DNA of 64,000 nt from an uncultured Candidatus Saccharibacteria bacterium (lineage in GTDB: Bacteria > Patescibacteriota > Minisyncoccia > Phycocordibacterales > CSBR16-119), in NCBI GenBank assembly GCA_964589975.1, contig CAZPVH010000003.1:5608-69607 (forward strand). Direction: 5' to 3'. Under the pieces are notes generated by a model. It saw only the letters and a program-made list of their open reading frames with translations. It did not search any database and was not told the origin of the DNA. Shown in pieces: positions 20,002 through 51,410 of this stretch. Both the position numbers and the translations under genes were made by a program. Numbering within the stretch: position 1 is the first letter of the stretch; the number at the start of each line of letters is the position of its first letter.

Positions 20002-21396
20002 CTAAAACTCCAGTTCTACTACCTGATTCTGCTCCGGCACGATAGCCGTAACGCCCAAATTATCGTGAAGTTTCTGCGCCAAGAACATTGAAACGCGTGG
20101 TTCACCCATGACCACAAATGCTTTTTTGAGCGTGTCTTTAGTGCTTTCGATGAATTTAACCAAGTGAAACGAATCTTTGTGTCCGGAGAATCCTTGGATC
20201 ATCACGACTTTCGCTCGAACATGCACGCGCTCGAACATAATCATAACCTGGTCTCGGCCTTCTTGGAGCATGCGTCCTAGAGTTCCCGGCACCTGATAGC
20301 CAGTGAGGAGGAGCGTCGCATTCGGATCCCCCAAATAATTCTTTTCATGATGAAGAATCCTTCCGCCAGAAGACATCCCAGAGCCAGCCATGATGATCTT
20401 TGGACCCGGAACTTTTAAAATATTTATTGACTCTTGAGTAATTTCCGTCTCCTTGAGCCCCGGGAAGCTAAAAATGTTGTCTCCCTGACTGATCTGCATC
20501 CGGACTGTTTCTTTAAGGAGATTTAGATGCCTTCTAAATACATCTGTTATACGAATTGCGAGCGGAGAATCAAGGAATATCTTTATTTGTGGAATCTGCT
20601 TCGATTCGACGAAATTATTGAGTTCGTAGAGAAATTCTTGGGTGCGTTCAAGTGAAAAGATCGGCACCATCAAAACGCCCTTCTTGTTATATGTTTCGAG
20701 TATGACTTTTTTCAAATTCTCTTCCCTCTCTGCGCGCTGCTCGTGATTTCTGTCGCCATAAACCGACTCCATGACAATATATTTGGCGTCGGTAATTTCT
20801 TCCGTATCAGCCAAAAGTGGCGACGGCGAGTTTCCAAGGTCCCCTGTAAAGACAATCTTCGAGCCATTGTATGTTATTTCAGCCATGACAGACCCGAGGA
20901 TATGTCCGGCGTCTTTGAAAAATACCGACAATGGCCCGAGGTGAAAATCCTCGTGATACTCATGCGTTTCCCACATATGATCAATCTTGGAGAGCACAGA
21001 TGTTCCGTACATTTCGCCGAGATGATACTTCGGCGCGGATTTCGAGTTTGCCAAAATATGCGCGGTGTCTGCAAGCATGACAGCCGTCAGATCGCGTGTA
21101 GCCGCGGTTCCGATAATTCTGCCCTTGAAGCCCTCATAAACAAGCTTAGGAATGCGGCCGATGTGATCTTCGTGAGCGTGCGTGACGATCAGTGCATCGA
21201 TATCTGCCGGATTATATGGGAATGGCTCCCAGTTATCGAATTCGGCCAGATGCTCACCCTGAATAAGGCCACAGTCCACAAGAAGACGAAACGGCTTCTC
21301 CCCCGATTCCGGCATCGTTTCGAGCAAAAAATTTGCGCCGGTCACCCAGCCCGCGCCGCCCGCAAAAGTAAGTTTTAATTTCTTAACGATGGTCAT
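20002..21396 (-). CDS. MBL-fold metallo-hydrolase, beta-CASP family ribonuclease (RNase J/CPSF-like)
   Basis: HxHxDH motif (VTHAHEDHIG), followed by beta-CASP-like and RNA-specificity regions. Confidence 0.8.
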   Translation of the reverse strand: MTIVKKLKLTFAGGAGWVTGANFLLETMPESGEKPFRLLVDCGLIQGEHLAEFDNWEPFPYNPADIDALIVTHAHEDHIGRIPKLVYEGFKGRIIGTAATRDLTAVMLADTAHILANSKSAPKYHLGEMYGTSVLSKIDHMWETHEYHEDFHLGPLSVFFKDAGHILGSVMAEITYNGSKIVFTGDLGNSPSPLLADTEEITDAKYIVMESVYGDRNHEQRAEREENLKKVILETYNKKGVLMVPIFSLERTQEFLYELNNFVESKQIPQIKIFLDSPLAIRITDVFRRHLNLLKETVRMQISQGDNIFSFPGLKETEITQESINILKVPGPKIIMAGSGMSSGGRILHHEKNYLGDPNATLLLTGYQVPGTLGRMLQEGRDQVMIMFERVHVRAKVVMIQGFSGHKDSFHLVKFIESTKDTLKKAFVVMGEPRVSMFLAQKLHDNLGVTAIVPEQNQVVELEF

Positions 21397-24657: not shown

Positions 24658-27339
24658 CGGTCGTCCATACTTGAGGAATGAAAGTTCTTTGAGAGAGTCG
24701 ACAATATCTGGATTTCCTGCTGGTAAGTCTTGTGTACGAATATTGAATGGCTTAACTGGCGTACCGTCGACGAGCATGGACACATACGCATTACGGTTAT
24801 CTAGCTTCATGATGTCTTGAACGGTAAAGACTGGGTCCAAACGCTTCTGCAAAATCTCCGCATCTTCGGAACTAATACGGAATATTGCCATCGAACCAAC
24901 GTTACCGAGTACGGCATTTCGAATATCGTCCGAGAGTTGTGACAAATACTGGTGGGCAACATTAAGACCGAGCTTGTATTTTCGTGCTTCAGAGAGAATC
25001 GAAGAAATAGATGGGGTGGTGAAATTCTGAAACTCGTCTATGTAGAGATAAAACGGTGGAAAATTTGCGCCGTGCGAGTCGGCACGAGAAAGTGCTGCCA
25101 TTTGGATCTTTCCTACCAGAATGAGACCTAAGAGGTTTGCATTGATATCTCCAAGTCTTCCCTTCGAAAGGTTTACCAGTAAGATTTTCTTGTTATCAAT
25201 AATCTCGCGGAAATTAAAGCTTGATTTCTCCTGAGCGATAATTGGACGCATAATTTCGTTAGAAATAAATGTGTCGAATTTGGACGTAATATACGGAACG
25301 AAGTTCTCTAGTCCTTGCTCACCTGTAGTCGCTTCAGCGGTTTTCCAGAATTGCTTGATGATTGGGTTCGTACAACGTTCTAGCTTCATATCACGGAATT
25401 TCTTGTCAGAGAGAACACGACCAATTTCAAGAATAGTATTACCTGTGGACGGATCAGACATCACAAGTCCGGCAGAATTCTTGAAATACTGCTCGAAAAG
25501 TGGTCCACCGGCGGTCTTCATATCAAAGAGCTGACTAAAAATACCGAGGAGTTCGTTAATCACAAGCGTCTTCTGTTCCGGACGCTCTGGATCAAACTCG
25601 AGCATATTGAGGCCCATTGGCCGCGCAGTTGAGGCTGGATCGAAATAAATGACGTCATCAATGCGATGTTTTGGGATATAAGAAAGGATTTTCTGGATGT
25701 CGGATCCGTGTGGATCTATGTAGCAAACACCGTCACCCCGCTCGATATCCTGACGAATCATGTTCATCATAATACCGGTCTTACCAGTTCCAGTCTGGCC
25801 GATAACATAAAAATGCCTCATGCGATCGAGCTCCTGGAGGTAAATATCGGTATCAACTCCGCGATGCGTGTTGATACCGATTTGAACGCCGCCACCAACC
25901 ATATTGAGCGGCGCAGACGCGGAACCTGCTTTTGACTCTTTGAGCTCTGGTGAAGACGCAAGACCTACCGGGAAATGCACGAGCGTCGAGAGTTCTTTGA
26001 AATTGAGCGGCAAGGCCGAAGCTTCGGTCGGCAGGCGGAATGAAAATGAATGGAGAAACTGATCCAAATGCTTGTCGTCGACCTTTTTAAACTTGAGACT
26101 GTTTGAGCTTGGCTTCTCGAACTGAGAGAACGCCGATTCAATGTTTGCAATTATCTCGCCTGTTCGAATGGCGCTATCTGACGAAGCCACGACACGGATA
26201 TTCGCCAGCATGATGGTCGACTTGATCTTCTCGGTAATATTTTCGACAGCTTTGTCGTCGATATCCTTTTCTTCCTTCTCTTCTGTCTTCTTGGGTCCTT
26301 TCCAAAGCATTGTTCCAAAGCTCTTTAGCTCTTTCTTTACGTCGCCAAACTCATCCAATATATGCTTAAGTTTTTCGCCTTTTTTCACCTTATCAAGATA
26401 TCCGGAGAATTTCTTAATGTATCTGTCCCCCGCCGGCATGATGACGAACTGGAGCGCCGCGCCTTCTTTCGTTTTATCAAGCTTCGAGAAGGCGTTCAGG
26501 ATCGTATTCATCGGATCATGATCAAACTCATCGTGAGTTTTGAGTGGAAACACCTCATGATCGCCAAACTCTGCCGATGCCGCCATAATCGAGCCGCCTG
26601 AGTTAAAGACATTGTAATCATTCGTAACTTCGGTGATCTTTGCATTCTTGTAAAATGACAGTATCTGTTTTTCAAGCAGAGTTTTTCGATCTTTTGGAAT
26701 GGAGACATAAAAAACGATTTCCGGTGAATCATGTGATACGGCAATCTCAATTGTGAAATATTGCTTATATTTATTATTCTCCCCATTCGATATGGTCTGC
26801 ATACCGGCATAAAACTGTTCCATAGCGGAAAGAAATTCTTTGAAAGTTTTTTCTTTCTCTTCTGAAGCTGGCAGAGTTACTTCAAAAAGCGCGAGGTTGA
26901 GAGATTTCCATTCTGGCGAACTCTCGGAGAGCCCGGGGACTTGATGAGAAGTGTGGAGGAACTGAATCAAGAATCTGTGAAAGTCGTCCTCAAGATGCGG
27001 ATTATGCATACGGGAAACGATATCCATGGTGTTTTTTATACCGTGCTCTAGGAGTAGGCCATAAAGCTCTTCGATTTGACTATCATGTTCTTCTGGCTTG
27101 AGGGCCAGGACCATGCTTTCGGCCTCTTTCTCTGGCACACGGTAGCTTTCATGAAGCACTTCGGCTGAGTCGGCTTTTTTGTACGCGGAAAGCGTCTCAT
27201 GAGTCACTTCTTCGCGAGATTTTTCAAGCTTAGCACCAGCGTTCACTCTCTCTTGTTCGGCAACTTTCTCGCGCAAATAAGCGAGCTCCTCTTCAGGAGT
27301 CTTGAACGCGCCTTTTTCCATGATCTGAGCCCCTTCCAT
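24610..27339 (-). CDS. large P-loop ATPase of the FtsK/HerA/TraG(VirD4) superfamily with ~430-aa N-terminal domain of unknown function
   Basis: Walker A GQTGTGKTG followed by DPHGS; Walker B LYIDEFQNF; downstream AHQYLSQL motif as in type-IV coupling/HerA-like ATPases; no TM segments. Confidence 0.7.
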   Translation of the reverse strand: MEGAQIMEKGAFKTPEEELAYLREKVAEQERVNAGAKLEKSREEVTHETLSAYKKADSAEVLHESYRVPEKEAESMVLALKPEEHDSQIEELYGLLLEHGIKNTMDIVSRMHNPHLEDDFHRFLIQFLHTSHQVPGLSESSPEWKSLNLALFEVTLPASEEKEKTFKEFLSAMEQFYAGMQTISNGENNKYKQYFTIEIAVSHDSPEIVFYVSIPKDRKTLLEKQILSFYKNAKITEVTNDYNVFNSGGSIMAASAEFGDHEVFPLKTHDEFDHDPMNTILNAFSKLDKTKEGAALQFVIMPAGDRYIKKFSGYLDKVKKGEKLKHILDEFGDVKKELKSFGTMLWKGPKKTEEKEEKDIDDKAVENITEKIKSTIMLANIRVVASSDSAIRTGEIIANIESAFSQFEKPSSNSLKFKKVDDKHLDQFLHSFSFRLPTEASALPLNFKELSTLVHFPVGLASSPELKESKAGSASAPLNMVGGGVQIGINTHRGVDTDIYLQELDRMRHFYVIGQTGTGKTGIMMNMIRQDIERGDGVCYIDPHGSDIQKILSYIPKHRIDDVIYFDPASTARPMGLNMLEFDPERPEQKTLVINELLGIFSQLFDMKTAGGPLFEQYFKNSAGLVMSDPSTGNTILEIGRVLSDKKFRDMKLERCTNPIIKQFWKTAEATTGEQGLENFVPYITSKFDTFISNEIMRPIIAQEKSSFNFREIIDNKKILLVNLSKGRLGDINANLLGLILVGKIQMAALSRADSHGANFPPFYLYIDEFQNFTTPSISSILSEARKYKLGLNVAHQYLSQLSDDIRNAVLGNVGSMAIFRISSEDAEILQKRLDPVFTVQDIMKLDNRNAYVSMLVDGTPVKPFNIRTQDLPAGNPDIVDSLKELSFLKYGRPRDEVEKEVMDKFMKI

Positions 27340-27340
27340 C

Positions 27341-27452
27341 CCGTTAGTGACAGGTCGCGGTCGTCATTCCGCCACCAGCAATTAAATTTATAATCTTGGT
27401 CATAGTTTCTTACATATGCATTTTACCCGCACGCGACCGCGGTCACTAACGG
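27341..27452. promoter_or_regulatory. long imperfect inverted repeat flanking a 68-nt AT-rich spacer, immediately upstream of the 909-aa ATPase start codon
   Basis: Arm 1 at 27341-27363 (ccgttagtgacaggtcgcggtcg) and arm 2 at 27432-27452 (cgcgaccgcggtcactaacgg), which contains the 10-bp palindrome GACCGCGGTC. Arm 1 begins 2 nt after the start codon on the minus strand. Confidence 0.6.
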
Positions 27453-27558
27453 GATCCATATGGATAATATTGTAACATGAAAGAAAAAGACCCTTGTTGC
27501 CAAGCAAAGCGAAAGAGCCGGCAGAACCGGCTCTTAAGTAAACTTCTTACACAGGCCT

Positions 27559-27795
27559 TTACGATTTCGACAAGCTTTCAGGGGAATACCATTCGGGAAC
27601 AGTACTCCAATTGTCGTCCATAAGCACAGGAACGTAGCGCTTATCCATCGGCGTTTTTGTCTCAACCAGCGAGACAGCCACGACCCGACCTTTGCGATGG
27701 CCCACTTTCACAAGTTCGCCAGCTGTGAATTCTCCGAACTTGAAAGCCATTTCTTGAACCTTAACGCCAGTAGCATTTTCCGTGGCTGTTGCCAT
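27559..27795 (-). CDS. hypothetical small protein
   Basis: 78-aa ORF followed by a hairpin terminator; no recognised family and not IF-1-like. Confidence 0.4.
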   Translation of the reverse strand: MATATENATGVKVQEMAFKFGEFTAGELVKVGHRKGRVVAVSLVETKTPMDKRYVPVLMDDNWSTVPEWYSPESLSKS

Positions 27796-27829
27796 GAGTT
27801 CTTGTTTTTCGAGATTATAGAGAAAGACC

Positions 27830-28594
27830 CTACTTTGTCAATACGATAGGACCCTTCTCGGTTATGGCGACAGTATGTTCAAAGTGGGCTGAGAGTGATG
27901 CGTCGTCGGTGATATATGTGTATTCGTCATCTGTCACACAGACTTCCCCGCTTCCGATGTTAAGCATCGGCTCAATCGCTATAACCATGCCAACGACAAG
28001 CTTCTCACCACTGCCAGCCTTACCATAGTTCGGCACACAAGGATCTTCGTGCACGCTGTAACCAACACCGTGACCAGAAAGAATTTTTACAATTCCATAA
28101 CCTAGAGGCTTCACAAAAGATTCAACAGCGTGGCCGATGTCGCCCGTGGTGTTCCCCACTTTCGCTGCTTTGACCGCGCGCTCCAGAGCTTCGCGCGTCG
28201 CTTTCATGAGCGCCGTTGCTTCTTTTGAAACTTTTCCAACCGGAACAGTGATGGCGCCGTCGGTAATGAGACCTTTATGAACAAGCCCGAGGTCGAGTGA
28301 AACAATATCTCCTTCTTCGAGTAAAACGTCTTTATTCGGAATCCCGTGCACCACTTCGTCATTTATGGAAACGCAGAGTGCCGCCGGATACGGATATGAG
28401 ACCCCTTCGGGTGTGTAATTGAGAAATGCCGGCTTATCTCCTCCTTCTTTGATGAGTTTTCTAGCCAAGATGTCTAGCGCTTTTGTCGAGACGCCGGGTA
28501 AGGCCGCTTTTGCGACTTCACGAAGAATAGCGGCATGGCGTCGGCCGCCTTCTTTCATCGTCTCTATTTCTTTTTCTGACTTCAGCCTGATCAT
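27830..28594 (-). CDS. map: type I methionyl aminopeptidase
   Basis: MetAP pita-bread fold motifs (DIVSLDLG...HG.GY). Confidence 0.9.
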   Translation of the reverse strand: MIRLKSEKEIETMKEGGRRHAAILREVAKAALPGVSTKALDILARKLIKEGGDKPAFLNYTPEGVSYPYPAALCVSINDEVVHGIPNKDVLLEEGDIVSLDLGLVHKGLITDGAITVPVGKVSKEATALMKATREALERAVKAAKVGNTTGDIGHAVESFVKPLGYGIVKILSGHGVGYSVHEDPCVPNYGKAGSGEKLVVGMVIAIEPMLNIGSGEVCVTDDEYTYITDDASLSAHFEHTVAITEKGPIVLTK

Positions 28595-29658: not shown

Positions 29659-30135
29659 TTAAAACGGGATGTCTTCTGGATTTATATCATCATCCGGATA
29701 CTCAATAGTCTCAAGCTCTGGAGCGCGCATTGGAGCATCCTGCTCTGGAGAATTGGCTGGCGCGGAGTTATTTCCTCCGCCATAGTTCCCTGCCCCTCCT
29801 CCCATCCCCCCAGCTCTCGGGCCAAACTGAATGGTGTCGGCGATGATTTCAGTTCTATACTTCTTGGCTCCATCGGCGTCCCAGCTTCTAGTCTGCATGC
29901 GGCCTTCCACGAGTATAGAAGAACCCTTCTTCATGTACTGAGCAACTATCTCTGCCTGGCGGCCGAAAGTCACAACATTGTGAAAATCAGTTGATTCTTG
30001 CTTGGCGCCGTTCTTGTCCTTCCAAGTTCGGTTTGTAGCGACGCTGAAATTTGTGACTTTGATACCCGACGGAAGGGCTTTCATCTCGGGATCGCGGGTC
30101 AGATTCCCAATGACCATGGCTTTGTTGAGATACAT
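29659..30135 (-). CDS. ssb: single-stranded DNA-binding protein
   Basis: OB-fold SSB N-terminus, Gly-rich linker and acidic tail DDDINPEDIPF. Confidence 0.9.
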   Translation of the reverse strand: MYLNKAMVIGNLTRDPEMKALPSGIKVTNFSVATNRTWKDKNGAKQESTDFHNVVTFGRQAEIVAQYMKKGSSILVEGRMQTRSWDADGAKKYRTEIIADTIQFGPRAGGMGGGAGNYGGGNNSAPANSPEQDAPMRAPELETIEYPDDDINPEDIPF

Positions 30136-30301
30136 CCCGTTTGAGATAGCAAATTATTAATTTGCGTATCCTTGCTTAAATTTTGATAATTTTTGCGACC
30201 GTTGGTTCATTATACTTTTTGTCATAATTTCTAACCATGGGATCTCTAACGGGATACATAAGTTAGAAGTTATTTGATAACGGTAACTCCATTGTAGGAG
30301 A

Positions 30302-37984: not shown

Positions 37985-38569
37985 CTACATGAGCTGTGTT
38001 GCGGCAAGTGATTTATTGAGCTCTTTGATAATAGATTTTTTCGTCGAAGTTAGCCGAGCGAGCGTCTCAGTGGTGAACGGACTCTTCGCAAGTCCGCCGA
38101 GCGCGTCGGCGTCGCCCCAATACCCGAGCCCTGAAAGAATTTTTAGAACAAGGAGAGCCTCAATACTCTCCATTTCATCCTGCTTCGGATGAGTATTCGA
38201 GGTGAATTCAAAAGCTGCTACCAACTCGTCGAAAAGGTGCTCGTGCGGTTCTTCTTCCGGCGCAAGCTTGGCGATTAGCTGGAGTCCGCGGATACGCGAA
38301 CTTGTCGAGAGGCTCTTTTTAGAATTCAAATCATGAATCGGCCTGGCGGAAACAAGCCGCCAGAAAGTCTTGCCTTTCACAAGGCTCGCATCGATGTATT
38401 TGAAATCCTGAACGAAGTAACGGAGGCGGGATTCCATTTTCCGGATTCCCATGGCTTTCGCGCGAATAACGCCAAAGTCTTTTGTAAACAGATGAAATGT
38501 CTTATCCGCCTCCCCGGTGTTTCGAGTCGACATCACAAACGCTTCAGTGTGATAAATAGTGTGAGACAT
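37985..38569 (-). CDS. recO: DNA repair protein RecO
   Basis: N-terminal OB-fold region resembles RecO (TEAFVMSTRNTGEADKTFHLFTKDFGVIRAKAMG). Confidence 0.65.
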   Translation of the reverse strand: MSHTIYHTEAFVMSTRNTGEADKTFHLFTKDFGVIRAKAMGIRKMESRLRYFVQDFKYIDASLVKGKTFWRLVSARPIHDLNSKKSLSTSSRIRGLQLIAKLAPEEEPHEHLFDELVAAFEFTSNTHPKQDEMESIEALLVLKILSGLGYWGDADALGGLAKSPFTTETLARLTSTKKSIIKELNKSLAATQLM

Positions 38570-41500
38570 TATTTCTCGATTTTTGTTTCCTCACCTCCCC
38601 ATTTAATTTCTTTGATTCCGGCGGTTTTCTTTAGCTCGTCTTCAAAGCCGCTAATTATATCCTTCTGGCTTTCTGGAATGGTTAGATTTACGAGATCGCT
38701 TGGTGACAAATTCTGATCCTTTCGCATACCTTGTACGCCTCGCAAGAACTTTCGGAAATCACCCTCACGCCTCAACTCTGGTGTAATCTCATGATTAAGC
38801 AATGTGGTTGTAGTCAAATTTCCATCGAAAATAACTTTTCTAACATTTAATTCCTCACTTACAACTACTGCCGTACCCCCGGAGAGAGAAATTACAGAAC
38901 TTATGCTTTCAAGCGGTTGACTAACTTCAATTCCTGCTTTTTTGCGCTCTTGTAAACCATTTGTGACTACTACTCTGGCGTCCCTCATCTCATCGATAAC
39001 TCTTTGATCAACTTTTTTACTTTCGGGCCATTTCGCAAGATGTACACTTTCGACATCATTCGACAATTTGAGCTTCTGCCAAATGTCCTCTGCTGCAAAA
39101 GGCGCGAATGGAGCCATAAGTTTGGCGACATCAACAAGTACCGCGTAAAGCGTGCGCTTTGCATCAGCATCTCCATCCTTGAGCCTGTCTCGAGAACGTC
39201 GTAGATACCAAGTTGATAGATCGTCGATAAAATCTCGAAGTGCTCTGACAGGTTCAAGAAGCTTGTAGTTATCGAGATTTTCCGTCATCGAGTTCGTAAG
39301 CTCTTTCAGCCGCTCCATAATCCAGATATCGAGCACATTGGAACTCTTCGGAACTTCGGAAGTCTCCAGGCTCTTGTCGCGGTAAAGCTCATAAAAGGCC
39401 AAAACGTTATAGAAAAGATTAAAAACTTTATTTCGAAGCTCAGCCACGGTCTTCTCGTCAAAGTTCTTCGAATCTCCCGGCTGGTTCACCGAATACATCC
39501 AGAGGCGAAGCGTATCAACGCCATATTTGTCCATCATTTCCCAAGGATTGACGATGTTTCCGATAGACTTCGACATCTTCTTTCCTTTCGAGTCCAGGAT
39601 GTGCCCCAAGCAGATACAGTTTTTGTAAGCCTGGCCTTTGCCCATGAGGACGCCAACGGCGTGGAGCGTATAGAACCATCCACGAGTTTGGTCGACGGCT
39701 TCAGAAATGAAATCTGCTGGATAACCCGCACCATCAACATATTCTTTATTCTCAAACGGATAGTGGTGTTGAGCAAAAGGCATGGCGCCGGAATCGAACC
39801 AGACATCCATAACTTCTTTTACTCGACGAAATTCCTTTCCATTTTTAACGAGCACGACGTCGTCGATAAATGGACGATGAAGATCAAATTCCTTTTTCGT
39901 GCGAGTGTCTACATATACTGGAAACACTTCCCCGTTTTCGATTTCATGGAAAAGATGCTCCGCGGCATAGTCGTTGCCGAAGCCGCGCAACAGTTTGATT
40001 CCCATTTCATCTGTACCCTGATGAGCAAAACAAACAATAGTCTTGCCAGCATGTTTTTCAATTATATCCTCGAGGAAATCCTTGACCCTGACCTGCAGGT
40101 CTGCCCAGCTCTCGCCTGTGCCTCCACGCTTGAAAACAAATCTCTCATCGGGAGTCATTGCCTTATAGGCGTCGCGCTCAGCTTTGATGCTTGGGTCATG
40201 CTGAGTCTTTTCTTCCCAATTACCACTGCTGATTTCGGCAAGGCGCTCATCCGTGATCATTTCCTTACCGGACAATTTCAAATACGGCTCAGCAGTTTGT
40301 CTGGCACGGAGAATTGGCGAACAATAGACAACGTCAATATCATGGTCGGTAAGCTTCTTGGCCGTTTCTTTTGCCTGCTTTTGTCCGAGTTCAGTCAATG
40401 GATGAGCTTCGCGAGCACTCGAAGAAACCAGGCCAACATTGGCATCTGACTGTCCGTGGCGAACAAAAATTATTTTAGTTATGGATTGCTTGGTATGTTT
40501 CTTGAGTTCCTCGACGCTTCCGACAACCCACTTCTCACCATCTTCGGCTACCCAAACCGGAAGAGGCGTGCCCCAATAACGCTCACGAGAAATAGCCCAG
40601 TCTTTGATTTCGCGTAGCCATTCGCCAAAACGACCTTCTTTGATATGAGACGGTTCCCAGTTAATTTTTTCGTTTTCTTTCACCAGCTCGTCACGAAGCT
40701 CGGACATACGGATGTACCAAGAATCTCGCGCATAATATATGAGCGGAGTTTTACATCGCCAGCAGTGCGGATATGTGTGTTCGTAGTTTTTCTTTCCAAA
40801 AAATAGTCCACGTGCGGTAAGGTCGTTTATAACATCGACGGCAAGTGTTGGTTTGCCGTTTTCGTCTTTCTCCATTGCAAATCGTCCAGAGAAAAAGGAA
40901 GTTTCAGGAAGAAACTTTCCATCAACGCCGACAACGTGTTCTTTCGGAAGACCAACTTTCGTCCCAAGCTCGAAGTCATCCTGTCCGTACATGGGCGCAA
41001 TGTGCACAATTCCTGTTCCGTCTTCGGTGGTGACGAAGTCGGCTGAGTAAACTTTATGAGATTTATCGTTTGGTTTGATGAAGTCGTAAAGGGGCTCATA
41101 TGAAAGACCGACAAGATCTGAACCTTTCACTTCCCCAATAACTTCATAACCATCTTTTAGAGCCTCAATTCGACTCTTGGCAATGATTAGAATCTCTTCT
41201 CCAACCTTGGCCTTTACATAATCAATCTTTCCGCCAACTGCCAACGCGACATTTCCAGGCAGCGTCCAAGGTGTAGTAGTCCAAGCAAGAACATAAGTGT
41301 TCTCTTCCCCTAGAACTTTAAACTTCACGAATATCGAAAGATCTTTTACATCTTCATACCCCTGCGCAAGCTCATGCGACGCAAGTGGTGTTCCGCAACG
41401 TGAGCACCATGGCACGATTCTATAATCTTTATAAAGTAGTCCACGTTCATTTACTTTTGCCAAAACATTCCAAAGAGACTCGATGTATGAATTGTCGAAT

Positions 41501-41952
41501 GTGAAATATGCATTCTTCTTGTCTACCCAGTAGCCGATACGGTCAGTAAAGTCTTCCCAGTCCTTGATGTATTGAAAAACGGATTCCTTGCACTCCTTAT
41601 TAAACTTCTCAATTCCGTATTCTTCGATAGCTTTTTTCGAGTTAAGTCCTAGTTTCTTTTCAATCTGAAGTTCCACCGGGAGTCCGTGAGTATCCCAACC
41701 GCCCTGACGACGCACATGAAAGCCTTGCATAGTTTTATAGCGTGGGATCACGTCCTTGAAAGCCCGAGCTTCCAAGTGATGTAGTGCTGGTTTCGCGTTC
41801 GCTGTCGGAGGTCCTTCGAAAAAGACGAATTCACCAGAAGGGCTTTCCTTTTGGAGGGTTTTATCAAAAATCTTATTGTCCTGCCAAAATTTTAGGACTT
41901 CTTCTTCCTTCCGAGCCGTGTCGGATTTTAGTTCCGGTTCCTTTTCCATCAT
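38569..41952 (-). CDS. ileS: isoleucine--tRNA ligase carrying an inserted histidine-phosphatase (PGM-like) domain
   Basis: IleRS hallmarks (GWDTHGLPVE, WTTTPWTLPGN, ISRERYWGTP, VWFDSG, KMSKS) plus ~200-aa insert with RHG and HQG motifs. Confidence 0.9.
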   Translation of the reverse strand: MMEKEPELKSDTARKEEEVLKFWQDNKIFDKTLQKESPSGEFVFFEGPPTANAKPALHHLEARAFKDVIPRYKTMQGFHVRRQGGWDTHGLPVELQIEKKLGLNSKKAIEEYGIEKFNKECKESVFQYIKDWEDFTDRIGYWVDKKNAYFTFDNSYIESLWNVLAKVNERGLLYKDYRIVPWCSRCGTPLASHELAQGYEDVKDLSIFVKFKVLGEENTYVLAWTTTPWTLPGNVALAVGGKIDYVKAKVGEEILIIAKSRIEALKDGYEVIGEVKGSDLVGLSYEPLYDFIKPNDKSHKVYSADFVTTEDGTGIVHIAPMYGQDDFELGTKVGLPKEHVVGVDGKFLPETSFFSGRFAMEKDENGKPTLAVDVINDLTARGLFFGKKNYEHTYPHCWRCKTPLIYYARDSWYIRMSELRDELVKENEKINWEPSHIKEGRFGEWLREIKDWAISRERYWGTPLPVWVAEDGEKWVVGSVEELKKHTKQSITKIIFVRHGQSDANVGLVSSSAREAHPLTELGQKQAKETAKKLTDHDIDVVYCSPILRARQTAEPYLKLSGKEMITDERLAEISSGNWEEKTQHDPSIKAERDAYKAMTPDERFVFKRGGTGESWADLQVRVKDFLEDIIEKHAGKTIVCFAHQGTDEMGIKLLRGFGNDYAAEHLFHEIENGEVFPVYVDTRTKKEFDLHRPFIDDVVLVKNGKEFRRVKEVMDVWFDSGAMPFAQHHYPFENKEYVDGAGYPADFISEAVDQTRGWFYTLHAVGVLMGKGQAYKNCICLGHILDSKGKKMSKSIGNIVNPWEMMDKYGVDTLRLWMYSVNQPGDSKNFDEKTVAELRNKVFNLFYNVLAFYELYRDKSLETSEVPKSSNVLDIWIMERLKELTNSMTENLDNYKLLEPVRALRDFIDDLSTWYLRRSRDRLKDGDADAKRTLYAVLVDVAKLMAPFAPFAAEDIWQKLKLSNDVESVHLAKWPESKKVDQRVIDEMRDARVVVTNGLQERKKAGIEVSQPLESISSVISLSGGTAVVVSEELNVRKVIFDGNLTTTTLLNHEITPELRREGDFRKFLRGVQGMRKDQNLSPSDLVNLTIPESQKDIISGFEDELKKTAGIKEIKWGGEETKIEK

Positions 41953-51355: not shown

Positions 51356-51410
51356 CCATGTACAGTATGCAAAAAGGGCCCCCGTTAGCGGGGGCCCTTT
51401 TTCGTTCATG

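Follow-up and report, generated by a model that had tools for sequence, protein, structure and literature searches.

The inverted repeat at the start codon of a Candidatus Saccharibacteria ATPase gene probably represents the ends of a MITE-like palindromic element

The inverted repeat that abuts the start codon of an ATPase gene in the window (the whole stretch of 64,000 nucleotides analysed here) probably consists of the terminal arms of a non-coding, MITE-like palindromic element of about 116 nt, a generic parasite or leader module and not a dedicated regulator of the ATPase gene. Judged by the corresponding sites in related genomes, the element is inserted exactly at the ATPase start codon, where it separates the A from the TG in the original ATG region. 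It possesses terminal inverted repeats and a target duplication verified against empty sites (the ATPase gene, ssb and three other genes), is small, contains no transposase gene, occurs in many copies and is patchily distributed among related genomes. The features of the locus are compiled in Table 1.

Table 1. Features of the ATPase locus and the second family member in the window, with positions, strand and the basis of each assignment.
Feature	Position	Strand	Basis or remark
Extended -10 promoter TGTTACAAT of the ATPase gene	27469..27477	-	sequence; same box in about 80 element-free orthologous loci
Upstream ATGGA, original start codon plus 2 nt	27455..27459	-	single ATGGA(A/G)GG at empty orthologous sites
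Hairpin element, 116 nt, TCCCGTTAGTGAC...GTCACTAACGGGA	27339..27454	-	matches family consensus
5' outer arm TCCCGTTAGTGAC, 13 nt (helix 1)	27442..27454	-	repeat search, covariation
5' inner arm CGCGGTCG (helix 2), within the conserved core CCGCGGTCGC	27434..27441	-	sequence, covariation
A+T-rich loop, 70 nt, varying between copies	27364..27433	-	contains the TATAAT/TATAAA-like hexamers of the earlier note
Candidate mini-ORF within the element, MTKIINLIAGGGMTTATCH and stop	27344..27403	-	reading-frame count
3' inner arm CGACCGCG	27356..27363	-	sequence, covariation
Conserved 4-nt bulge ACCT, part of ACCTG	27352..27355	-	nested copies of other members insert here
3' outer arm GTCACTAACGGGA	27339..27351	-	last A doubles as start-codon base 1
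Downstream TGGA copy, coding bases 2-5	27335..27338	-	sequence, filled/empty comparison
Host ATPase gene, 909 aa	24610..27339	-	VirD4/TraD-like; DUF8128, TrwB_AAD_bind, TraG-D_C
Terminator-like hairpin GAGCCGG ttctg CCGGCTC plus T-rich run	27511..27534	-	read from sequence
Second family member, 120 nt, on the ssb start codon	30135..30254	-	ATGTA/TCCCGTTAGAGAT...ATCTCAAACGGGA/TGTATC

The arms, the spacer and the palindrome from which the earlier note had started were all recovered at their positions, and the pairing turned out to be slightly longer than it had claimed. The proximal arm ccgttagtgacaggtcgcggtcg (27341-27363) and the distal arm cgcgaccgcggtcactaacgg (27432-27452) enclose an A+T-rich spacer of 68 nt, and the palindrome GACCGCGGTC lies at 27435-27444 inside the distal arm. 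Using a repeat search, we found a perfect 14-nt inverted repeat (27338-27351 with 27442-27455) that extends into the AT of the ATG. The outer stem of the ATPase-gene repeat is perfect over 13-14 bp, and past the 4-nt bulge ACCT (read on the gene strand) an inner stem of 8 bp is formed by 27356-27363 with 27434-27441. Folding of the 5' UTR, which the note had proposed as a check, yielded a stable structure, the gene-strand RNA reaching -49 to -51 kcal/mol (z = -3.5 against dinucleotide shuffles). An inverted repeat matching at 11 of 12 positions within 260 nt was obtained at 5 of 3000 random window positions. The search for the half-site, run within the window, gave two occurrences against 0.45 expected, a count reached by 5 of 100 shuffles and not significant by itself. 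On the strength of the sequence comparisons, the decisive argument against chance is the family, as the same arms recur in about 95 other copies with compensatory changes.

Filled and empty ATPase loci were compared. More than 1000 homologues of the ATPase occur in Patescibacteria, and the element was absent from 82 of 84 orthologous loci, namely 78 of the 80 genome loci and the four closest relatives (82-83% on the amino acid level). The empty loci carry TGnTAnAAT, followed after 6-9 nt by ATGGAAGG, with nothing between; among the closest relatives one empty site reads TGATACAATattaggatcATGGAGGG and another TGATATAATtctaggatATGGAAGG. The order in the window is TGTTACAAT-attatccat-ATGGA-(116 nt)-TGGAAGGGG, with 9 nt separating TGTTACAAT from the old ATPase start codon, and the upstream half of the 4-nt target duplication is the TGGA at 27455-27458. 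The 3'-terminal A of the element and the duplicated TG restore an ATG, so that the protein is unchanged, and the insertion moves the ATPase promoter 120 nt away from the start codon. Related elements occupy the identical nucleotide of the ATPase locus in the window and in two further loci (L002 and L058), each of which has empty close relatives.

The same kind of insertion was observed at other genes. When every start codon of the window was scanned for an abutting inverted repeat, exactly two copies were found, one at the ATPase gene and one at ssb, and the empty ssb site of a close relative (L053) reads ...cccatATGTATC. The 4-nt duplication was also seen in the comparisons of the window ssb with L053, of L197 with L116, of L112 with L130 and of L167 with L163. 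The filled site of the last pair, ATGGA/CCCCG..CGGGG/TGGAC, is matched by the empty site ATGGAT, from which it follows that the duplication is TGGA and that the last base of the element replaces the first base of the start codon; the terminal G of this copy creates a GTG start.

The position of the ATPase promoter upstream of the distal arm is supported by the orthologous loci, and with the promoter there both arms should be transcribed and can pair in the 5' leader, which could fold into an interrupted helix of about 21 bp. Further upstream, the terminator-like hairpin follows a 78-aa ORF and bounds the ATPase promoter region, and it was not called in a consensus terminator scan. The earlier note had proposed that a helix in the leader buries the ribosome-binding region. 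The leader helix is favoured by the promoter orthology, but the burial is not supported, given the lack of Shine-Dalgarno motifs in the window and orthologues of the leaderless type. A gene-specific riboregulator, in which this helix hides the ribosome-binding region of the ATPase gene and opens on temperature, ligand or protein, would agree with a promoter upstream of both arms, with the stable fold (z = -3.5) and with the pairing of the A of the AUG. Against it, the helix is missing at 82 of the 84 orthologous loci, nearest relatives included, copies of the element are found on 79 unrelated gene families, the helix has no Shine-Dalgarno sequence that it could hide, no Rfam match was obtained even at E<=1, and the variable loop is devoid of conservation resembling a ligand pocket. 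Comparative data of this kind appear already to have largely refuted the riboregulator, which we consider highly improbable. The conservation of the repeat in orthologous loci was checked and not found, and its absence from 82 of 84 of them, the nearest relatives among these, also speaks against the suggested tight control of the ATPase gene. Nor is the repeat specific for that gene, the same element being present on ssb, murG, topA and ribosomal protein genes, across 79 Pfam families.

Metagenome sequences were scanned for the cores CCGCGGTCGC and GACCGCRACCTG, common to the three ATPase copies, which yielded at least 120 stretches. About one third of the metagenome matches listed were G+C-rich chance matches, and since the pattern demanded the CCGCGGTCGC...GACCGCRACCTG core, the census is biased to one subfamily. 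A looser detector run over all collected loci gave 119 detections, corresponding to about 95 distinct copies among the matches listed, and among these the element measures 64-238 nt with a median of 118. The family consensus is T/C-CCCGTTAGAnn ... nnTCTAACGGG-A/G. On the 5' side the element begins with T/C-CCCGTTAGA, followed by 3-4 variable paired positions and an optional inner stem with the ACCTG bulge, and on the 3' side the A+T-rich variable loop leads to the complementary arm ending CGGG-A/G, with the foot TCTAACGGG-A/G. Short plain hairpins with the same feet also occur. Some copies have inserted into another one at its ACCTG bulge, duplicating CCTG, and others lie in tandem. A 4-nt duplication (TGNN) was counted in 55 of 95 copies, and duplications of 0, 2, 3 and 5 nt also occur; this variable length, together with flanks other than ATGNN, is unusual for a classical DDE transposon. 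About 4 elements were present in about 590 kb from 80 Paceibacteria genomes sampled via the ATPase gene, a patchy distribution, and viral contigs gave no match to the two-core pattern. No long autonomous element with the same ends was detected among 204 loci, distant arm pairs considered as such having proved to be separate neighbouring elements. Furthermore, Pfam analysis of about 60 ORFs identified no transposase, integrase, reverse transcriptase or invertase/recombinase in the window, all assignments being to housekeeping genes.

Covariation was tested on 44 diverse copies, in which the outer helix lay outside the search pattern save for its innermost, invariant C-G pair. Double changes were found in 8 of the 13 outer pairs, and none of 500 shuffles reached the observed values. 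For both helices 94.9% of cells were paired, compared with 35-43% when the partner columns were slid, and across 95 copies 97.7% of arm positions were paired. Arm positions 10-13 change complementarily (GTGA/TCAC, GAAG/CTTC, GAGG/CCTC, GAGA/TCTC), which is not predicted by the binding of a protein to separate half-sites. This bears on the suggestion that a dimeric repressor binds the arms as operator half-sites on either side of a promoter in the spacer. Such operators would suit the sequence conservation of the arm feet (CCCGTTAGA / TCTAACGGG), the palindrome GACCGCGGTC in the distal arm and the TATAAT-like hexamers of the A+T-rich spacer. However, the arms covary so as to keep their pairing, the spacer is not constant among copies, the common GAAG variant has lost the 10-bp palindrome, and the distance between the arms varies from about 20 nt to more than 150 nt. 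Moreover, the promoter of the orthologues is located upstream of the distal arm and outside the spacer, and the repeat is missing at 82 of 84 orthologous loci, so that an operator function is barely credible.

An inverton, in which an invertase flips the spacer between the repeats and switches the ATPase gene on and off, is another reading to which we give next to no weight. The inverted repeats do surround a short A+T-rich segment beside a gene start, and a perfect TATAAT lies in the spacer at 27390-27395 on the plus strand, directed away from the gene. The ACCTG bulge, however, is always on the gene-proximal arm, about 79 of 80 copies, taken from independent assemblies, share one orientation, the window encodes no recombinase, and the empty sites reveal that the insertion comprises the entire segment together with its arms.

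Among orthologous copies, identity was 96-100% in stems and cores and 52-87% in loops, against 36-77% at the largely randomised third codon positions of the host genes. This conservation points to purifying selection acting on the stems or, alternatively, to an exchange of elements in the recent past. The arm mismatches comprise 10 G.T and 7 A.C, which amounts to no bias and does not separate an RNA from a single-stranded DNA form.

The position of the element with respect to genes is highly constrained. A start codon [A/G]TG lies directly 3' and opens an ORF of at least 40 codons in 96 of the 119 detections, most of the remaining ones being inner members of nested pairs or contig ends, and of the about 95 distinct copies among the matches listed more than 90% adjoin the ATG or GTG of a real ORF. 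Covariation also links the first and last bases of the element, which are T/A in 85 copies and C/G in 8, the latter all giving GTG starts. The 5' flanks are heterogeneous: 58 copies have the duplicated ATGNN, in 11 operon-internal copies the stop codon of the upstream gene touches the element, 9 copies have (T)ACNTG and 15 have other flanks, a stop codon or (T)ACNTG thus replacing the duplicated ATGNN at the 5' side in about one third of the copies. Of about 80 asymmetric copies only one is reversed (L134), and this copy is also on an ATG. The 93 downstream proteins hit 79 Pfam families, and many of them are essential; the targets include NusB-domain proteins, SSB, MurG, elongation factors, TopA, the ribosomal proteins L31 and S4, FtsW and ATP synthase subunits. 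So near-exclusive a start-codon position cannot plausibly arise from selection on random insertions alone.

The window is an ordinary piece of chromosome with map, adk, ssb, rpsF, recA, ftsK, genes for several aminoacyl-tRNA synthetases and EF-G, nusG, the L11 gene and a glycan cluster, and it also encodes an RNase J/beta-CASP homologue at 20002-21396. No Shine-Dalgarno motif was found before its about 60 ORFs, and in many of its genes a TAnAAT (-10 box) lies 5-9 nt upstream of the ATG, which is a leaderless arrangement. About half of the Parcubacteria are reported to be without an anti-SD motif (PMC9297842). We infer that the ATPase gene is still transcribed from its old leaderless-type promoter, with the transcription start probably at or near the old A (27459). 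If this promoter is used, the mRNA would open with the old AUGGA and continue into the hairpin, at whose 3' foot the real AUG is found. The upstream AUG, which in the window opens the 19-codon ORF MDPVSDRGRVRVKCICKKL followed by a stop, would be a 5'-terminal decoy if transcription starts there. A conserved peptide read from the old ATG was rejected as a required coding feature, as only the arm-encoded M-x-PVRSRGR is common; these upstream peptides have a median length of 18 aa and occur in all three phases relative to the real ATG. A promoter in the 3' arm was likewise rejected, the -12 to -7 positions being GTCACT, GCTTCT or GCCTCT with no -10 box, as was an intrinsic terminator, the stem having no following U-run.

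Because essential genes carry the hairpin, strong general repression by it is excluded. The stem pairing may be kept because a compact hairpin leaves the host gene expressible without Shine-Dalgarno pairing, and three candidate routes could be envisaged. A cut at the 3' foot would make the mRNA leaderless again. Alternatively, with the hairpin looped out, the AUG might be reached across the hairpin base, either by a ribosome sitting at the 5' end or by one that terminates at the 5' foot. In a third route, the mini-ORF of the loop would be read to the arm-encoded UAA, 4 nt before the AUG, with subsequent reinitiation. In the window this UAA is at 27344-27346, and an ATG-initiated ORF of at least 12 aa ending at the arm-encoded TAA is present in 35 of 91 copies, compared with 9 and 11 in the other frames. 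The mini-ORF as a general mechanism was nevertheless rejected, since most copies have no such ORF despite the enrichment. The mini-ORF is conserved in one subfamily. Taken further, our tentative proposal, which we hold as a possibility and not as the expected outcome, is that of a start-codon-homing element of Shine-Dalgarno-less Patescibacteria, which would enter genes, many of them leaderless, at their first bases, whereupon the codon is rebuilt with the terminal base of the element and the effect of the insertion is neutralised at the RNA level by foot cleavage or by shunting/reinitiation.

The element could also be a host-owned cis-acting RNA signal, a hairpin punctuation placed before start codons whose spread by insertion is secondary, though this strikes us as rather unlikely. 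We consider it similarly doubtful that an endoribonuclease or the ribosome recognises the hairpin for the release or definition of leaderless-type mRNAs or for mRNA stability. The exact contact of the 3' foot with the start codon in all flank classes, including the 11 operon-internal copies, would fit a host signal, as would the strong orientation bias (one reversed among about 80 asymmetric copies), the 96-100% conservation of orthologous stems, with loops that often exceed third codon positions, the presence of copies on essential genes and the lack of Shine-Dalgarno motifs before the window ORFs. On the other hand, the distribution is patchy (about 4 elements in about 590 kb of 80 Paceibacteria genomes), the closest relatives do well without the element at the same genes, and target duplications with nested and tandem copies are hallmarks of insertion.

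Comparison with known systems places the element nearest to small bacterial palindromic repeats. The Correia elements of Neisseria, the ERIC/IRU of enterobacteria and the RUP/BOX of pneumococci are about 100-150 bp long, with terminal inverted repeats and a short target duplication, and are co-transcribed as mRNA hairpins that can alter stability or processing. The element described here resembles them in size, inverted ends, duplication, non-coding nature, multiple copies and patchy occurrence. However, those repeats use simple targets such as TA and are intergenic at varying distance from genes, whereas this family is on the start codon in more than 90% of copies, with the codon rebuilt by the last base, has a strong orientation bias and compensatory stem changes, and is found in Patescibacteria. 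To our knowledge, there is no known parent transposase for this family. REP/BIME with RAYT and the IS200/IS605-derived palindrome-associated elements enter 3' of a fixed tetra- or pentanucleotide and leave no target duplication. Their hairpin is recognised at the foot, and they resemble the present family in a conserved foot with a variable top, a strand or orientation bias and a substrate of the single-strand type, but differ in that here a 4-nt duplication was verified, the 5' flanks vary and an HUH transposase was not found. On the grounds of the duplication and the flanks, identity with the IS200/IS605 type was rejected. An integron attC site was dismissed because the order GTTAGA ... TCTAAC is the reverse of attC (R''-L''...L'-R' with RYYYAAC ... 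GTTRRRY), and an integron cassette because the empty sites show only the hairpin inserted and no gene cassette. A known structured RNA (riboswitch, ribozyme or leader) was likewise set aside for want of a match to Rfam 15 covariance models: at E<=1 the interval 26800-28000 gave only a chance-level sR17 (E=0.27), and at the gathering score the window and 8 element-rich loci gave only tRNAs and a group I intron elsewhere.

Other parallels concern the coexistence of mobile or structured sequences with coding regions. Rickettsia palindromic elements (RPE) are mobile and enter genes, including essential ones, without destroying them; they are translated in frame inside proteins, whereas the present element is outside the frame, directly 5' of the start codon. 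In the cauliflower mosaic virus ribosome shunt, the bypassing of phage T4 gene 60 and the byp elements of yeast mitochondria, the ribosome skips a stable hairpin or a repeat-flanked mobile insert and resumes at the 3' foot. Unlike in these viral, phage and mitochondrial systems, the matched repeat is missing in about one third of the copies here, and the likeness is only a lead. Leaderless mitochondrial mRNAs are released by processing at tRNAs (RNase P, RNase Z), by which the AUG can come to lie at the 5' end. The setting in Patescibacteria is similar, with compact genomes, leaderless translation and hairpins or structured RNAs against coding regions, but the mitochondrial punctuation is organellar and tRNA-shaped with demonstrated processing, whereas a plain interrupted hairpin, known from sequence, is concerned here. 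Repetitive hairpin-forming elements have been described in sponge mitochondria (PMC2800124), and bacterial MITEs and palindromic repeats are covered by a general review (PMC3184786). Literature searches on the motif string and on the concept found no description of such an element, and hairpin elements that insert on start codons and restore the codon appear to be undescribed so far.

Our analysis removes a false lead, as the ATPase gene hosts a copy of a repeat and lacks an operator or riboswitch of its own. In annotation, gene callers may choose the decoy upstream ATG or mis-call small ORFs inside the element. The insertion of such an element in bacteria that lean on leaderless initiation provides a natural experiment on how an AUG is found behind a structured leader of 120 nt, and it raises the question of how a mobile element could recognise start codons. 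If start-codon homing with neutralisation at the RNA level is true, the element would parallel, in bacteria, the tRNA punctuation of mitochondria or the ribosome shunt of viruses. Mobile DNA would then have a new way to inhabit essential genes, and the host may since have taken the element over as a general leader module.

Inspection of approximately 60 ORF starts across the whole window revealed no Shine-Dalgarno motif at any of them. Many of the window genes carry a TAnAAT box 5-9 nt upstream of the ATG, an arrangement of the leaderless type, and the operon-internal genes start in A+T-rich sequence near the stop codon of the preceding gene.

Besides the copy abutting the gene of the VirD4/TraD-like ATPase, the window holds a second member of the hairpin family, positioned on the start codon of ssb; the subfamily of this copy lacks the CCGCGG core. 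The ssb site is filled in the window, whereas it is empty in the close relative L053. Within the element at the ATPase gene we identified a small ORF, the UAA of which is encoded by the 3' arm of the stem, 4 nt upstream of the host AUG. Small ORFs ending at the 3'-arm UAA are also held by about 35 other elements, and the peptide ..KIKFNNIIKHSxGLLTATCF is common to one element subfamily.

Features of the window and their positions
Feature	Position	Strand	Remarks
Beta-CASP/RMMBL metallo-beta-lactamase-fold RNase	20002-21396	minus	close to the ATPase gene
Small ORF within the ATPase-gene element	27344-27403	minus	encodes MTKIINLIAGGGMTTATCH
Second hairpin-family member	30135-30254	minus	at the start codon of ssb; ATGTA-TCCCGTTAGAGAT...ATCTCAAACGGGA-TGTATC
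Isoleucyl-tRNA synthetase	38569-41952	minus	1127 aa
Perfect G+C hairpin	51370-51400		between two convergent genes; GGGCCCCCGTTAGCGGGGGCCC

Among the compared loci, short members of the family are nested within larger ones, inserted at the ACCTG bulge with duplication of CCTG (L106, L143, L163 and L181), and a tandem pair of full copies is found on a single start codon (L175, 35-272). Furthermore, in one class of copies (L111, L140, L151, L156 and L074) the duplicated ATGNN directly 5' of the element is replaced by (T)AC-NTG, where N is not A. Four copies of this class have a -10-like box approximately 6-8 nt 5' of those five bases, a spacing that leaves a 5-nt tail ahead of the hairpin, the same as in the ATGNN class. 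In L168 (~9197, minus strand), an upstream ftsW-like ORF runs into the element and ends at the TAG of the 5' arm (TCC CGT TAG), thus the arm is able to provide the stop codon of the preceding gene; L092 and L102 were grouped with this locus.

The G+C hairpin between the convergent genes is terminator-like. The hairpin core, CCCCGTTAGCGGGG, resembles a minimal element foot, which may be a coincidence. The catalytic domain of the isoleucyl-tRNA synthetase is interrupted by an inserted histidine-phosphatase domain (His_Phos_1; residues 494-657). In L190, one of the element-bearing contigs, positions 2512-2730 match the group I intron family of Rfam (RF00028) at 67.7 bits; this intron adjoins a tRNA gene.

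In L202 and L204 the genes run in the order ATPase, NDK, DUF2238, beta-CASP RNase; in the window, the NDK and RNase genes are both located to one side of the ATPase gene. If the leader is processed at all, the beta-CASP enzyme is a candidate for the 5'-end-dependent RNase involved.
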